From: Thermogemmatispora carboxidivorans
GTDB taxonomy: Bacteria > Chloroflexota > Ktedonobacteria > Ktedonobacterales > Ktedonobacteraceae
Assembly (NCBI RefSeq): GCF_000702505.1
Contig: NZ_JNIM01000001.1
Location: 4,686,327 to 4,750,326, forward strand
Direction: 5' to 3'
DNA length: 64,000 nt
Below are positions 45,547 to 61,183 of the stretch, piece after piece (the stretch's first letter is position 1; each line of letters starts with the position of its first letter). The position numbers and the translations under genes are program-made. The notes below the pieces were generated by a model. It did not search any database. It was not told the DNA's origin and worked only from the letters and a program-made list of their open reading frames with translations.

Positions 45547-46219
45547 CTGTAGAGATCTGGCCAGCGCCGGCCTGGGGCCGAACCACGTCCGCTGCTGGCG
45601 GCGCTTGCTCAGATGGCCACCACGCCACCTGAACAGGATCAGCCCCCAGCGCCCAGCCAGCGTACGCCCATTGCCCCACCAGCCCGCCCATCGGCGAACC
45701 AGTGGGGGCCGTCAAAGATGGATCGACCGACCGCTGGCGACTCTACGCTGCCCCCCACCGTCACCTCCACCGCTACGAGGCAGACATGCCACCCTGAATC
45801 AGGCCCCAACGACTCACTCGCCGCCAGAGGAGAGAGAGACCTGCCGGTCTCGCCCAGCGGACGAGTGAGCCGCTCAGCTACCCGAGCAGCCTGCAGCTGG
45901 CGGAACCTTGAGGATGTAGAGTAGACCGCTCATCATGATGCCATTCCAGGCCCACACAGCGGGATAGCCTTCGAGAGCGAAGGCCGTGCTGCTCTCCTCC
46001 CTGGCTGGACGATGCCAGCCCAGCGGAGCGGCGTGGAACAAGTGCACTTCCCGCCCCGACTGGCTCCAGCGACAGCGACGAGCACCCTTCAACGCTGCGT
46101 CGATCGATCCGATCTATGTCTCGGATCAGGTATCCTGCCAGCAGGTGGCGCAAGCGAATCAGCGAGCAAGGAGGAAGAGATGGGCCGAACAAGCGTATCT
46201 CTCGCTCGACCAACCCACC

Positions 46220-46840
46220 TCAGTGCGTCTCTGCCGACGAGCTACAGGCGCTGAGTATGGGCAGCCATTGATCAAGGCGAGTCACAGCCACCGCGCGGAC
46301 CCCGCTGGCCAGCACGGCGCGCAACTGATTGGCCCCATAGAGCAGGCCCGACGCCATATACGGCAGATCAAGGGTTGGTCTGAGCGCAGGCATAATGTAA
46401 GGCACCACATGCGCCGGCGTGAAGTCCAGCATATCGACCACGTCACGGTCCACCGACTCCAGAGCCATCTCCAGCCCAGTCGAATCGACCGCGAAGATAC
46501 GCTGGATGGCCTCCAGTCCCAGCTCATGAGCCAGCACCATCACTCTGGGGTGACTGGAAATGACGCCCCGGATGTGAAAGTGGCTCGCAAGATGGCGCAG
46601 ACCCGCATAATCGGCATTGACGCCATCGATGTGATCCATATTCACATAGAGGGCATAGCCGCTGCGATGGGCGCGCTCAACCAGTGCCTTGAATTCAAAC
46701 AGATTGCAGTGTCTGAGCAGAATAGCCCGCACCGCCGGCGTCTCCAGCGCCTGTACAAAGCGCGGGCGGGTTTCCACAACGGGCACCAGCACGCTGGAGG
46801 CCGGTAGGTTGAGCAGTGATACACCGGACTGCATACGCAT
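46220..46840 (-). CDS. glpP: Glycerol-3-phosphate responsive antiterminator, GlpP family
   Basis: ...AIQRIFAVDSTGLEMALESV...LDFTPAHVVPYIMPAL... resembles the B. subtilis GlpP blocks (AIQRLFMLDS...). It is directly upstream of glpD with a ~670-nt gap. Confidence 0.7.
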   Translation of the reverse strand: MRMQSGVSLLNLPASSVLVPVVETRPRFVQALETPAVRAILLRHCNLFEFKALVERAHRSGYALYVNMDHIDGVNADYAGLRHLASHFHIRGVISSHPRVMVLAHELGLEAIQRIFAVDSTGLEMALESVDRDVVDMLDFTPAHVVPYIMPALRPTLDLPYMASGLLYGANQLRAVLASGVRAVAVTRLDQWLPILSACSSSAETH

Positions 46841-47116
46841 CACCCATCTCGCACGTGCCTGGGACAAACGCCTGAAAAACAATAAAGTCCTGAGCCTGCC
46901 ACACTCGTGGCAGCGCCAGGACTTCTCAAGTCTCTGTCCGGACGATATTCGCAATGATCAATCACACCGGGGAGAAGGACCCTCCTCCCCGCTGCGCTGT
47001 ACCTGCTGGTTAGGACAGCCTTTACGCAAGTAATCATACCTGTCCCAGGTACTTTCTGTCAAGTGGCAGCCGTACCCTGGTAGGCGCCACGCTTTCTTTG
47101 CTACAATGAGAGCGGA

Positions 47117-47692
47117 ATGACCAGAGAGGAGTTTCTCAGGCTGGCCCGCGTCCATCCTGTGGCCGCGGCCATCAAGGCAGAGGAGGACTGGACTCCGGCC
47201 CTGGAGAGCCGGGCCTGCCTGCTCTTTGCCCGGCACGGAGATGCCTTCGCACTGGAGCCACTGGTTGAGCAGGCCCATGCCCGGGGGAAGGGCGTTGTTG
47301 CGCATCTCGACCTGCTGGCCGGCATCGGCAAGGACCGCGCCGGTCTCGCCTATTTGCGCCACATCGGCCTTGATGCCGTGATTACCAGCCGCCCCTCCCT
47401 GGTAGGCATTGCCAGAGCCGAGGGCCTGCTGACCATCCAACCCCTGCTGTTGACCGAAGAGCTGGCCCTGACCAGCTGTATCCACCAGATTGCGCAGGCT
47501 CAGCCCGACCTGATCGAGGTCCTCCCGGGGATCATCTTCCCCGACTTCGCCCGCACTGTGCGCGCCCTCCTCCCCGGCCCTTTCATCGCCGGCGGCTTCA
47601 TCCGCACCCCCCAGGAGGTCGCCCGCCTGCTGGCGACCGGCTGCGTGTTGATCAGCAGCAGCGCTCGCCAGCTCTGGCAAGCGGCAGCCTAG
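47117..47692 (+). CDS. GlpP-family antiterminator paralog
   Basis: ...TIQPLLLTEELALTSCIHQIAQAQPDLIEVLPGIIFPDFARTV...FIAGGFIRTPQEVARLLATGCVLISSS matches the G3P_antiterm fold. It converges on ptsH with a 4-nt overlap. Confidence 0.7.
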   Translation: MTREEFLRLARVHPVAAAIKAEEDWTPALESRACLLFARHGDAFALEPLVEQAHARGKGVVAHLDLLAGIGKDRAGLAYLRHIGLDAVITSRPSLVGIARAEGLLTIQPLLLTEELALTSCIHQIAQAQPDLIEVLPGIIFPDFARTVRALLPGPFIAGGFIRTPQEVARLLATGCVLISSSARQLWQAAA

Positions 47693-48021: not shown

Positions 48022-48151
48022 GATCGGTCTCTTTCTCCCTTCCTCTCACCTCTGCCCAGTGAGTGCTTTGCTCAGCGGGGCTCTCTCGGGGAAACCCGGC
48101 TGTTCTTCTCGTCCTGTTGTGAAACCTTCTGCCAGCAGGCTGGCCGGCCTT

Positions 48152-48613
48152 TTATGTCCTGTCCCCGGCGGGCTTATCGTCGGGGGCTGTCTCCTCGGTT
48201 GCCTGGCCTTCCGCCACAGGCAACTTTGGCAGGGTGGTGGCTGCCATCGCTGCCTCGGCTACCGCCGGCAGTGGACTGCCGATCGAGGCCTCCACAGCGG
48301 CCACCACTGCCCCTTCAACCAGGGGGGCGCTACTAATCATCACTGGGCAGTCATGATCTTGCTTGAAGAGTTCCAGCGCCATCTCGGCGGCAAGGCCAGC
48401 GCTGCCGAGATCGAGTAAGACCAGGACTCCCTCGGGACTGGCCGCCTGCCGCAGGGCCTGGAGGATTTTGTCGACCGAGGTGCCGAGTCCTCCTTCGGCA
48501 GTGCCTCCCGCCGGCGCAATCACGACCTTGCCCTGCGCCATCTGGCCCGCTAGCTCCACGACGCCCTCGGCCAGACGCGCACTATGCGAGACAATCACTA
48601 AGCCAACCGTCAT
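48152..48613 (-). CDS. dhaM: Dihydroxyacetone kinase phosphotransfer subunit (mannose-type EIIA domain)
   Basis: ATG at 48613 with GAGGAG RBS. MTVGLVIVSHSARLAEGVVELAGQM, with the EIIA-Man His in VSHS. Confidence 0.75.
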   Translation of the reverse strand: MTVGLVIVSHSARLAEGVVELAGQMAQGKVVIAPAGGTAEGGLGTSVDKILQALRQAASPEGVLVLLDLGSAGLAAEMALELFKQDHDCPVMISSAPLVEGAVVAAVEASIGSPLPAVAEAAMAATTLPKLPVAEGQATEETAPDDKPAGDRT

Positions 48614-48960
48614 TGGAATATTCTCCTCGCCATGAGCAACAGAGGAGGGCCAGCTCTGGGCCACCTGCCACGGTTTCGAAGCGCCGTCAGCTTAGCCTGC
48701 CTGTCTGCCTGATCTGACCTGGTCACAGCGACTCGCCCTTGCTCTACCCTCAAGGCCGATAGAAACCATTCCCCGCTTGCCTTGTGGAAGCGAGGCTCTC
48801 TCAGGTAGTCGTTCGATCGTTGCCACCTGTCCTGCGTCAACCTATCCCAGTGGGTCCCTCAAACCAGGTAGCGGGCCACATGGCTGGTAGCCAGGTGGCG
48901 CGATAGATAGAGAGGCAGGTAGGCTGACAGCAATGCTCAAGCCGACGGGGAGGCACCGGC

Positions 48961-49587
48961 TCAGTCAGCAACTTCGGCGAGCGTCTTCAGCAGCAGCCAG
49001 CTGGAGGTCGCGCCCGGGTCCTGGTGACCGATGCTGCGCTCGCCCAAATAGCTAGCCCGGCCCTTGGTGGCCTGCATGGGGATCGTCGCCTTCATGCCTT
49101 CCTCAGCGGCCTCAGCGGCGCGGCGCAGCAGCACGGCCAGGCCCTCATGCTGCTCCTGGGCCTTGCGGGCTGCTGCCAGAGCTGGCTCCAGGGCGTCGAC
49201 CATTGTCTTCTCCCCCGTATGAGCCTTGCCGCGGGCTTTGATCCCATCCAGGGCCGCCTGCAGCATCTCGATGACGTCCGCCTCGTCCAGCTCATGCTTA
49301 CCAGCGGTTACCATCCCAGCGCGCAGAAAGGCCGTTCCGTAGAGCGGGCCACTGGCGCCGCCCACCGTCGAAACCAGAGTTGTCCCGACGGTCTTCAGGA
49401 TGGAACCGATATCCATGCCGCTCAGTGAAGGCAGCTTGTCGAGAACAGCGCGAAAACCGCGATCCATGTTGACGCCATGATCAGCATCGCCGATCGGAGC
49501 GTCAAGCTGGGTGAGATAATCACGCTGCTCGTGAAAAACCTGGGCCGTTTGCGTTATCCAGCGTAAGACATCCTCTGTTGTGATTGG
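48961..49587 (-). CDS. dhaL: Dihydroxyacetone kinase ADP-binding subunit
   Basis: MPITTEDVLRWI...LTQLDAPIGDADHGVNM... is the Dak2 domain signature (DADHG). Confidence 0.88.
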   Translation of the reverse strand, partial: PITTEDVLRWITQTAQVFHEQRDYLTQLDAPIGDADHGVNMDRGFRAVLDKLPSLSGMDIGSILKTVGTTLVSTVGGASGPLYGTAFLRAGMVTAGKHELDEADVIEMLQAALDGIKARGKAHTGEKTMVDALEPALAAARKAQEQHEGLAVLLRRAAEAAEEGMKATIPMQATKGRASYLGERSIGHQDPGATSSWLLLKTLAEVAD

Positions 49588-49885
49588 CATAGCCTGCTCT
49601 CCTCCGTAGTGTTGGGGTGCGGGTGCGGGTCGCTCTGACAGCGCGAGCGTCATTGTCGTCGGAGCGGGTAATAGCGAGTGTGACGGGAGTGGCTTGCTGG
49701 CGCTCTTCTTGACGGAAGGCCAGGCCGCTGGCAGCAGCGACCGGCTGAGGCATAGAGCAAGGCAAGGGGTGGGCGCTAGCAGGTAGACCCTTGCCCCGCT
49801 CCTGCCCGGTTGGCCCTGTCAAGCCAGCCTGGACACGAGGGCAAGCCAGCCAACAAGCACAGCTCGACCGTCAGCCCGGTCCGGC

Positions 49886-50887
49886 TCAGATCCCCCAGCG
49901 CAGGGCTGGAGTCAGCACAGGGGCATCCCAGTAGCGCAGCATCTCGTCATCGACGCGCAGCAGCGTAATAGAGCAGCCAGCCATCTCTAACGAGGTGATA
50001 TAGCTGCCTACCAGGGAACGGGCGATTGTAATGTTGCGCCCCTTGAGAATACGCGCCAGCTCGCGCGCGACAATGTAGAGTTCGATTAAAGGTGTGCCCC
50101 CCATGCCATTGACAAAGGCCAGGACGCGCTCGCCGGCCTTCAGGCCGAGGTCCTCGATAATGGGATTGGCCAGCATCTCGACGATGTCGGCTGCTGGGGC
50201 CAGTTTGACGCGCCGGCGCCCGGGTTCGCCGTGGATGCCAATACCGATCTCCATCTCGTCCTCGCCCAGCTCAAAGGTGGGCGAACCCTTGGCGGGAACG
50301 GTGCAGGAGGTCAGGGCCATGCCCATGCTGCGCCCCTGCTCGTTGACGCGCTTGGCCAGGGCCGCCACCTGCTCCAACGAGGCCCCGCTCTCAGCGAGAC
50401 CCCCGACGATCTTCTCCAGGAGAACGGTGACACCGACTCCGCGCCGACCGGCGGTGTAGAGGCTGTCCTCAACAGCTACGTCATCATTGGTGATGACACT
50501 GGCGACTTCGATGCCTTCGGCCTGGGCTAGCTCCGCCGCCATTTCAAAGTTGAGGACGTCACCCGTGTAGTTCTTGATAATCTGGAAGACGCCAGCCCCG
50601 CCATTGACGGCCCGCATGGCTGCGAGAATCTGGTCGGGAACTGGTGAAGTGAAGATCGCGCCAGGACAGGCGGCATCAAGCATGCCTCTCCCCACAAATC
50701 CCCCATGCATTGGCTCATGACCGCTGCCCCCTCCCGAGACAACGCCTACTTTGCCCCGCACCGGTGCGTCTGCCCGCACAACGATCTGATTCTCCAGATC
50801 GACGCGGATCAGCTCGGGATGCATGGCAGCCATGCCTTCTAGCGCTTCTTTGACGACCGTCTCTGGACTGTTGATGAGCTTCTTCAT
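49886..50887 (-). CDS. dhaK: Dihydroxyacetone kinase DHA-binding subunit
   Basis: ATG near 50887 preceded by [19 protein letters not shown]...[38 protein letters not shown]... is the Dak1 signature with the active-site His. Confidence 0.92.
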
Positions 50888-51158
50888 GCTGCCTCCTTTT
50901 CCCAGAAGTCGAGGGCCGCTTCGTTGCCCTCCTCTGACCTCGACAGCGACTCCGCTGCTCCCTCCTTCCCCACGTCGCCCACCGCTCTCCGCTCCGCTTG
51001 AGAGCCGCTCACCGGTCTGCCATTGCCTGCGGAGACCTTCCTCCGCCGCCAATGGCCTTCTTCAGCACATCTGCTCGGCCAGGCAGGCGCCCACGCCCGC
51101 CTGCCCCCCACTCGCTAGAGATGAGAGCCTCTGGCTTTGCCTGTCTACTCTTTAGACA

Positions 51159-51174
51159 TGCAAGATTCGTGCCA
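51159..51174 (-). promoter_or_regulatory. Sigma-54 (-24/-12) promoter for the dhaK-dhaL-dhaM-ptsH operon
   Basis: Plus strand TGCAAGATTCGTGCCA reads on the minus strand as TGGCAC-GAATC-TTGCA, an exact match to the TGGCAC-N5-TTGCW consensus. It lies ~270 bp upstream of dhaK, with a sigma-54 activator gene adjacent. Confidence 0.65.
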
Positions 51175-51252
51175 GCTTTCCCCGGCGCGTGGGAAGAGGC
51201 TCCCGACAGGTCACCGCACACCCACCCCACGCTCTGCCATCGCTTCAGGAGC

Positions 51253-51321
51253 GTTGCATCATTGCAACAGCTCGCTGGTTCAGTTTCATTATTGAAACAT
51301 GCGTTGTTTCACTATGGCAAC
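51253..51321. promoter_or_regulatory. Three related inverted-repeat sites (GTTGCA-tcat-TGCAAC; GTTTCA-ttat-TGAAAC; GTTTCA-ctat-GGCAAC), candidate upstream activating sequences for the adjacent enhancer-binding protein
   Basis: Read directly: 51253-51268, 51283-51298, 51306-51321. Consensus GTT(G/T)CA-N4-TG(C/A)AAC, 80-160 bp upstream of the sigma-54 promoter. Confidence 0.45.
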
Positions 51322-61111: not shown

Positions 61112-61183
61112 TCCTCGATAGCTCAACGGTAGAGCAACCGGCTGTTAACCGGTGGGTTGCAGGTTCGAATCCTGCTCGAGGAG
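61112..61183 (+). tRNA. tRNA-Asn (anticodon GTT)
   Basis: Cloverleaf read manually: acceptor TCCTCGA/TCGAGGA, D-arm GCTC-AACGGTA-GAGC, anticodon arm ACCGG-CTGTTAA-CCGGT (GTT), T-arm GCAGG-TTCGAAT-CCTGC, discriminator G. No encoded CCA. Confidence 0.85.

Follow-up and report, generated by a model that had tools for sequence, protein, structure and literature searches.

A candidate sigma-54 promoter and DhaR-type enhancer circuit at the PTS-dependent dihydroxyacetone kinase operon of Thermogemmatispora

Introduction

DhaR is cited as a textbook case of an enhancer-binding protein that abandoned sigma-54, and the DhaR/dhaKLM system of Escherichia coli has reportedly been characterised by Bachler and colleagues in 2005 and by Shi and colleagues in 2014, the latter with structures said to be available as PDB 4LRX, 4LRY and 4LRZ. 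Classical systems with multiple dimer sites include those of NorR (three sites, norV), NtrC (glnA) and, in Bacillus subtilis, AcoR together with SigL (acoABCL); AcoR shares COG3284 with DhaR. The E. coli DhaR protein is sigma-70 dependent and is devoid of the GAFTGA motif (PMC10084136; PMC3162934), being activated by DhaL-ADP and antagonised by free DhaK (PMC10084136).

In a survey of 2011, sigma-54 was found in some Chloroflexi only, with RpoN present in Herpetosiphon and missing from Chloroflexus and Roseiflexus. The same census assigned one DhaR-like homologue each to Chloroflexus and Roseiflexus, flagged 'f dhaR-like' in the activator column. A literature search returned no report on sigma-54 in Ktedonobacteria or Thermogemmatispora.

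The present analysis concerns the control region of the PTS-dependent dhaK-dhaL-dhaM-ptsH operon of Thermogemmatispora carboxidivorans, located in a 64-kb stretch of DNA that was analysed as a whole and is referred to below as the window. Judged from comparative sequence evidence, the probability that this region combines a sigma-54 promoter with a DhaR-type enhancer circuit is roughly 0.85.

Results

Gene content of the dha locus

All three kinase subunits encoded in the operon score above the NCBIfam equivalog cut-offs, in keeping with a PTS-dependent DhaKLM enzyme ( Table 1 ). An earlier note on this DNA had described a dhaKLM-ptsH operon beside a sigma-54-type activator gene, and Pfam and NCBIfam agree on these neighbours. 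The maximal ORFs of dhaL and dhaM (Pfam EIIA-man, ATG at 48613) begin at 49653 and 48664, respectively. The unit is preceded by cydAB and a cydDC-like ABC transporter and followed by two glpP-like genes and a glycerol-3-phosphate dehydrogenase/oxidase gene (glpD-like), neighbours that place the operon in a glycerol and triose cluster.

Table 1. Features of the Thermogemmatispora dha locus (positions in the window; dyads are given in the minus-strand reading).
Feature	Position	Strand	Basis or remark
dhaR-like enhancer-binding protein gene, 722 aa	51312..53480	minus	Pfam, NCBIfam, alignment to E. coli DhaR
Distal dyad GTTGCC-ATAG-TGAAAC	51306..51321	.	pattern match, 1 mismatch
Middle dyad GTTTCA-ATAA-TGAAAC	51283..51298	.	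23 bp centre-to-centre from distal dyad
Proximal dyad GTTGCA-ATGA-TGCAAC	51253..51268	.	30 bp from middle dyad
Predicted sigma-54 (-24/-12) promoter TGGCACGAATCTTGCA	51159..51174	minus	unique exact match in window
Predicted transcription start	51148	minus	~12 nt past -12 GC; from sigma-54 promoter geometry
Leader, ~261 nt	50888..51148	minus	first ~45 and last ~50 nt near-invariant in genus; middle variable
dhaK, 333 aa	49886..50887	minus	TIGR02363, 493.6 bits (cut-off 406); Pfam Dak1
dhaK-dhaL spacer, 298 nt	49591-49885		
dhaL, 209 aa from ATG 49590	48961..49590	minus	TIGR02365, 262.6 bits (cut-off 138)
dhaL-dhaM spacer, 351 nt	48614-48960		
dhaM, EIIA-type domain only, 153 aa	48152..48613	minus	TIGR02364, 127.3 bits (cut-off 98)
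dhaM-ptsH spacer, 132 nt	48022-48151		
ptsH-like HPr gene, 110 aa	47689..48021	minus	Pfam PTS-HPr, TIGR01003; last of unit

The leader of the operon folds better than shuffled controls (z = -2.56), and a predicted CUUCU/AGGAG stem could cover the ribosome-binding site. Comparison of the leader with Rfam, at gathering and at relaxed thresholds, gave no credible family match, and its covariation is thin, six close relatives only being at hand. The spacers between the genes of the unit are unusually long; the same-gene spacers measure 100-430 nt in other Ktedonobacteria, against ~10 nt in E. coli, and a terminator scan of those between dhaK, dhaL, dhaM and ptsH predicted none. Given that long untranslated spacers are general in the clade, that covariation is thin and that no Rfam family was matched, no specific leader element is claimed. 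The sole Rfam match at the gathering threshold in the window is a tRNA gene at 61112-61183 (+).

Several other observations concern the glycerol genes at the distal end of the operon. Two GlpP-like genes (PF04309, glycerol-3-phosphate-responsive antiterminator) flank this end, at 47117-47692 (+) and 46220-46826 (-), and the first of them converges on ptsH, the ends of the two genes overlapping by 4 bp. The side-by-side position of these paralogues suggests RNA-level control of glycerol genes beside a sigma-54 switch. In the region 46827-47062, a near-consensus sigma-70 promoter (TTGACA-18-TATGAT, 11/12 positions) occurs on the minus strand at 47062..47033 and is followed by a ~200-nt leader which folds far better than shuffles (z = -5.7); at its end, a long hairpin (GUCCUGGCGCUGCCAC...GUGGCAGGCUCAGGAC) and then UUUAUUGUUUUU immediately precede the second glpP-like gene. 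This leader looks like an attenuator, possibly an autoregulated one. Also, the 670-nt gap that separates the glpD-like gene from the second glpP-like gene (45547-46219, minus strand) contains at ~45915-45950 a block, GGAATGGCATCATGATGAGCRGTCTACTCTACATCCT, that is invariant in four Thermogemmatispora genomes, its surroundings being variable.

Promoter and upstream dyads

The minus strand from 51330 to 50880 opens with the end of a long ORF (...GTG TTG CCA TAG), continues with three dyads and ~78 GC-rich bases, and then reads cTGGCACGAATCTTGCAt, followed after ~270 bases by AAGGAGGcagcATG, which opens dhaK. The exact -24/-12 consensus that the earlier note had placed on the minus strand at 51174..51159 is present there and is unique in the window: all 16 specified positions of TGGCAC-N5-TTGCW are matched with exact spacing, the GG falling at 51173-51172 and the GC at 51161-51160, and the extended consensus YTGGCACG-N4-TTGCW is also satisfied. 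The pattern TGGCACNNNNNTTGCW has this single match in 64 kb, for a chance expectation of 0.04. Sites with one mismatch number 6 in the window compared with 4.8 expected; as they occur at the chance rate, they were dismissed, and the exact site alone stands out.

Transcription from sigma-54 promoters starts ~12 nt downstream of the -12 GC, the geometry from which the start site in Table 1 is predicted. The distance to dhaK, put at about 270 bp in the earlier note, is 273 bp from the -12 GC to the ATG at 50887.

The three dyads upstream of the promoter are likewise where the earlier note had located them, with the same spacing between centres, 30 and 23 bp. The motif GTTKCA-N4-TGMAAC, with one mismatch at most, has 3 matches in 64 kb, all of them within 69 bp (expectation 0.31). 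Measured from the T of TGGCAC, their centres are 86.5, 116.5 and 139.5 bp further upstream, which corresponds roughly to -112, -142 and -165 relative to the predicted start.

This arrangement could be put down to chance, a promoter-like string and palindromes having come together in one intergenic region, and shuffled versions of the window do yield at least one exact match to the promoter pattern in 4 out of 100 cases. Yet three or more dyads were recovered in none of the 100 shuffles.

A second alternative is that the dyads serve another regulator or mark the 3' end of dhaR, for instance as small RNA hairpins. The distal dyad overlaps the activator stop codon (TAG, 51312-51314), and every one of the three could form a 6-bp RNA hairpin, both of which accord with a role at the 3' end of the gene. 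Against such a role, the stems are AT-rich, span 6 bp and are without a U tract, and the terminator scan was negative there.

The scan of the dhaR-dhaK spacer predicted neither a sigma-70-like promoter (hexamer pair) nor a terminator, and this result bears on a third alternative from two sides. According to it, the -24/-12 match would be a relic or unused, and transcription of the operon would depend on a housekeeping sigma factor, beginning either at a promoter in the leader that escaped recognition or further up, in dhaR, and reading through, with the DhaR-like protein acting from the dyads as an ordinary activator or repressor, as in E. coli. Since no terminator is predicted after dhaR, some read-through into the operon is possible, as this explanation supposes; the missing hexamer pair speaks against it. 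A repeat search of the 45.5-51.4 kb interval revealed nothing further of relevance.

The DhaR-like activator

The earlier note had called the product of the upstream gene a DhaR-like activator, and by sequence it is a full-length homologue of E. coli DhaR in which the AAA+ core is intact and the loop reads GSFTGA. The predicted protein consists of an N-terminal DhaR-type sensing region (GAF-like and PAS), an AAA+ sigma-54 interaction domain and a Fis-type helix-turn-helix, Pfam recognising PAS, Sigma54_activat (PF00158, E 9e-69), AAA-lid and HTH_8 (E 5.6e-14). Its best NCBIfam model is DhaR (NF008485), with 477 bits, a score below the equivalog cut-off of 551. The alignment to E. coli DhaR is end-to-end (29% identity over 686 aa, E 8e-89), and residues 26-309 match the DhaR sensing domain of PDB 4LRX chain C (E 1e-26). 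The closest homologues are those of Thermogemmatispora onikobensis (94% identical) and of T. tikiterensis and T. aurantia (both 92%), a genus of the class Ktedonobacteria in Chloroflexota. Look-ups of the exact sequences of the activator and of DhaK gave no recorded entry.

Walker A (GETGVGKE), Walker B (FLDEIG) and the sigma-54 contact loop (GSFTGA) are intact. In 20 Ktedonobacteria sequences (the window and loci L001-L019), Walker A GETGxGKE and the DE of Walker B are invariant; GSFTGA is invariant in the window and L001-L018, and L019 has GAFTGA. That the loop is a variant form counts against sigma-54 use. The strict conservation of both the ATPase and the loop motifs speaks against a relic promoter. 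The A2-to-S variant of GAFTGA is functional in LevR (PMC3162934).

Conservation of the layout in Ktedonobacteria

A scan with the activator alignment, taking one genome per species, returned 37 loci. Nineteen of these (L001-L019) belong to Ktedonobacteria and have activators 60-92% identical to that of the window; L013, which ends 23 bp past the activator gene, was left out. In 18/18 informative loci, three N4 dyads and then a TGGCAY-N5-TTGCW site, co-oriented with the gene after it, lie downstream of the activator gene, a count that overstates the number of independent events, the loci being related by descent. The target in these loci and in the window is dhaK, or a glpF-like gene and then dhaK, and in Ktedonobacteraceae the promoter precedes a MIP/GlpF-like channel gene followed by dhaK. 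Positions 4 (C) and 12 (T) of the promoter are invariant across loci, though the search pattern allowed alternatives.

Dyad centres are separated by one short (21-25 bp) and one long (29-32 bp) interval across loci, summing to 50-55 bp, or about five helical turns. Flanking sequence is unalignable between genera. Between genera the half-sites are kept, and the bases of the N4 spacers, the flanking DNA and the interval from enhancer to promoter vary, the dyads lying 50-215 bp from the promoter and the proximal one at 50-165 bp; a variable distance with preserved half-sites is expected of an enhancer and not of an activator working from a fixed position. Within Thermogemmatispora, the block CTGGCACGAATCTTGCATGTC is identical in 5/6 sequences, the sixth (HOG45) differing only by the missing leading C, and adjacent bases vary. 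The position of the distal dyad is also kept in the five other loci of the genus, with spacers that vary (ATAA, ATCA, GCCA, ACAA).

These patterns weigh on all three alternatives. Counting N4 dyads with one mismatch at most over the window and the 18 loci, 58 fall in the 3,990 bp of enhancer windows (the 210 bp upstream of each promoter) and 0 in the remaining 287,852 bp. With promoter and dyads recurring together in 18 other loci, chance co-occurrence is effectively refuted by the comparative data. A function of the dyads at the 3' end of dhaR is contradicted by their wholly intergenic position in other genera and by loci L009-L011, in which unrelated genes are inserted after dhaR: there the dyads are more than 1.2 kb from the dhaR stop codon and stay, with the promoter, beside the target operon. 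As for a relic promoter, the preservation of the CTGGCACGAATCTTGCATGTC block while nearby bases vary, and the persistence of the -24/-12 site across genera in DNA that is otherwise unalignable, are both against it. The circuit proposed in the earlier note, from a DhaR-like activator through upstream sites and a sigma-54 promoter to dhaKLM-ptsH, is thus well supported, its promoter and three dyads being conserved as a unit in the 18 other loci.

No RpoN box was detected in six-frame translations of the window and the 37 loci. The retention of the -24/-12 element across diverged genera constitutes strong indirect evidence, short of proof, for the presence of sigma-54.

One further sigma-54-like string was rejected as a candidate. 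TGGCATCGGGCTTGCT, a strict match in three loci (L001:13119, L002:13150, L004:13173), falls inside the coding sequence of a glpP-like gene (PYMASGLLYG) and is not kept in the window, which reads TGGCGTCGGGCCTGCT at ~46350; it was considered a chance match.

A separate element was observed in front of the MIP/GlpF-like gene of Ktedonobacteraceae, a gene that the window lacks. A conserved CGAAAGGAGG stands ~35 nt ahead of the start codon of this gene (L014:8470-8520 and equivalents in L006-L012, L017 and L018); after it come a 7-bp hairpin, whose stem shows compensatory changes (GTCTACC/GGTAGAC, GCCTGCC/GGCAGGC, ATCTGCC/GGCAGAT), and then ACAAnnnT-ATG. This hairpin may bring a Shine-Dalgarno-like sequence near the start codon.

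A sigma-70-type layout in other Chloroflexota

Eight further loci from Anaerolineae, Ardenticatenaceae and Leptofilum (L020, L021, L023-L025, L027, L028, L030) encode DhaR homologues 37-42% identical to that of the window, upstream of a glpF-like gene and then dhaK. Like the window, they have the same half-sites and long leaders. In place of the three N4 dyads of the window, however, each of the eight has exactly two GTTTCA-N3-TGAAAC dyads, 32-33 bp apart, and in all eight the second is centred precisely 24 bp ahead of the -35 hexamer of a good sigma-70-type promoter (TTGAnn-16/18-TAnAnT, typically TTGAnn-18-TATAGT). The control regions of these loci gave no -24/-12 site. Also, no N4 dyads were found in them, nor N3 dyads in the enhancer windows of the sigma-54-type loci.

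The GAFTGA loop is removed by a four-residue deletion and Walker B reads DQ in six of the eight. The two others, L020 and L021, keep GAFSGA and the DE of Walker B and have the sigma-70-type layout nonetheless. Except in L020 and L021, an intact sigma-54 contact loop goes with one class of promoter and a lost loop with the other, and these exceptions imply that loop integrity alone does not prove the use of sigma-54. The N3 layout abutting the sigma-70-type promoter occupies L020:7987-8085 and L021:8064-8160, and the two loci may represent an intermediate state in a sigma-factor switch. A third arrangement is found in a locus of Chloroflexaceae (L026:5443-5520), where the DhaR homologue has a degenerate loop and just one N4 dyad, GTTTCAAAACTGAAAC, stands ~40 bp ahead of a TTGACG-17-TATCAT promoter.

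The same half-site occurs in E. coli, the dhaR-dhaK spacer of which contains two N3 dyads 31 bp apart (GTTTCA-TAG-TGAAAC and GTTCCA-TAT-TGAAAC), by sequence a candidate operator; in the window there are three dyads with 4-bp spacers and a -24/-12 promoter. The window protein, the Chloroflexota DhaR homologues and E. coli DhaR have the recognition helix SRTTLWRKM in common. The half-sites shared near dhaR in E. coli and in the eight Chloroflexota loci tie the dyads to the DhaR helix-turn-helix, and the fact that the half-site travels with DhaR across phyla ties those of the window to its own DhaR-like protein. With the same half-sites accompanying dhaR homologues in another arrangement, it is very improbable that the dyads belong to another regulator or to the 3' end of dhaR.

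The comparison with these loci also bears on a relic promoter with housekeeping transcription. Favouring it are E. coli DhaR, which works with sigma-70, and loci L020 and L021, in which an apparently intact loop is paired with the sigma-70-type layout. Yet an activator of that ordinary kind would be expected at a fixed position, as in the eight sigma-70-type loci, and the dyads of the Ktedonobacteria are not so placed; taken with the conservation described above, this makes a relic promoter unlikely.

Discussion

A sigma-54 promoter served by a DhaR-type enhancer circuit is the preferred reading of the Thermogemmatispora dha control region. The sequences themselves show the anatomy of the region, its conservation, the domains and motifs of the activator and the correlation of loop integrity with promoter type, L020 and L021 excepted. 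From them we infer the use of sigma-54, the stoichiometry of dimers and hexamer, the looping and the signal, which would combine as follows. Sigma-54 RNA polymerase would bind the -24/-12 promoter as a closed complex, and the DhaR-type protein would bind as dimers to the three GTTKCA-N4-TGMAAC dyads, which share approximately one helix face, the intervals of 23 and 30 bp adding up to 53 bp or about five turns. The three dimers would supply the six protomers of an AAA+ ring, which could reach sigma-54 with its GSFTGA loop once the ~85 bp of DNA in between are looped out; ATP hydrolysis would then open the promoter and transcription would start near 51148. The kinase subunits themselves are probably the source of the signal, DhaL-ADP acting as co-activator and substrate-free DhaK as antagonist. 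For the Thermogemmatispora dhaR product this reading of the signal is taken from the family, because its N-terminal sensing domain is homologous to that of E. coli DhaR, and thus from domain homology alone.

Within Chloroflexota, the same regulator, half-site and operon seem to be wired in two ways, an interpretation that we moderately favour: a sigma-54 enhancer mode and a fixed-position sigma-70 mode. In loci of the first kind, a -24/-12 promoter is preceded at variable distance by three N4 dyads, and the GSFTGA loop and the ATPase of the activator are intact. In those of the second, a pair of N3 dyads sits 24 bp ahead of the -35 box, the loop is deleted and Walker B reads DQ, as in E. coli. 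If this is true, these loci form a natural series in which an enhancer-binding protein changes its sigma factor and keeps its DNA specificity and signal.

The prediction of a promoter is as such routine, and the switch is of an ordinary kind. The locus is notable mainly because the well-studied DhaR of E. coli has lost its dependence on sigma-54, and the Ktedonobacteria loci apparently show a sigma-54-competent form of DhaR with the same operator half-sites. The regulation of glycerol and dihydroxyacetone catabolism can also be annotated with confidence in this class of Chloroflexota, which has been little studied, and the use of sigma-54 in the class is implied. The question of which changes are needed when an activator switches sigma factor, be it in the loop, in the ATPase or in the number, spacing and position of sites, is made testable.

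Compared with the system of E. coli, the window protein has the same order of domains (GAF-like, PAS, AAA+, helix-turn-helix) and its gene is likewise next to dhaKLM. It is ~80 aa longer, mostly in two linkers, and its loop and Walker B are intact, in contrast to E. coli DhaR, in which the GAFTGA loop region is deleted and Walker B reads LFLEKI (EK, not DE). In addition, dhaR and the dha operon are divergent in E. coli and in tandem in the window, and DhaM of the window comprises just an EIIA domain, HPr being encoded by a gene of its own, unlike in E. coli.

With respect to the classical systems of NorR, NtrC and AcoR, both the recognition sequence and the sensing domain are different, and the GC-rich spacer between promoter and dyads in the window has no evident IHF-like site, unlike those systems. 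Like the window, they have a -24/-12 promoter with palindromes ~80-200 bp upstream of it and an AAA+ activator encoded beside its target, and in them, too, three dimer sites match one hexamer.
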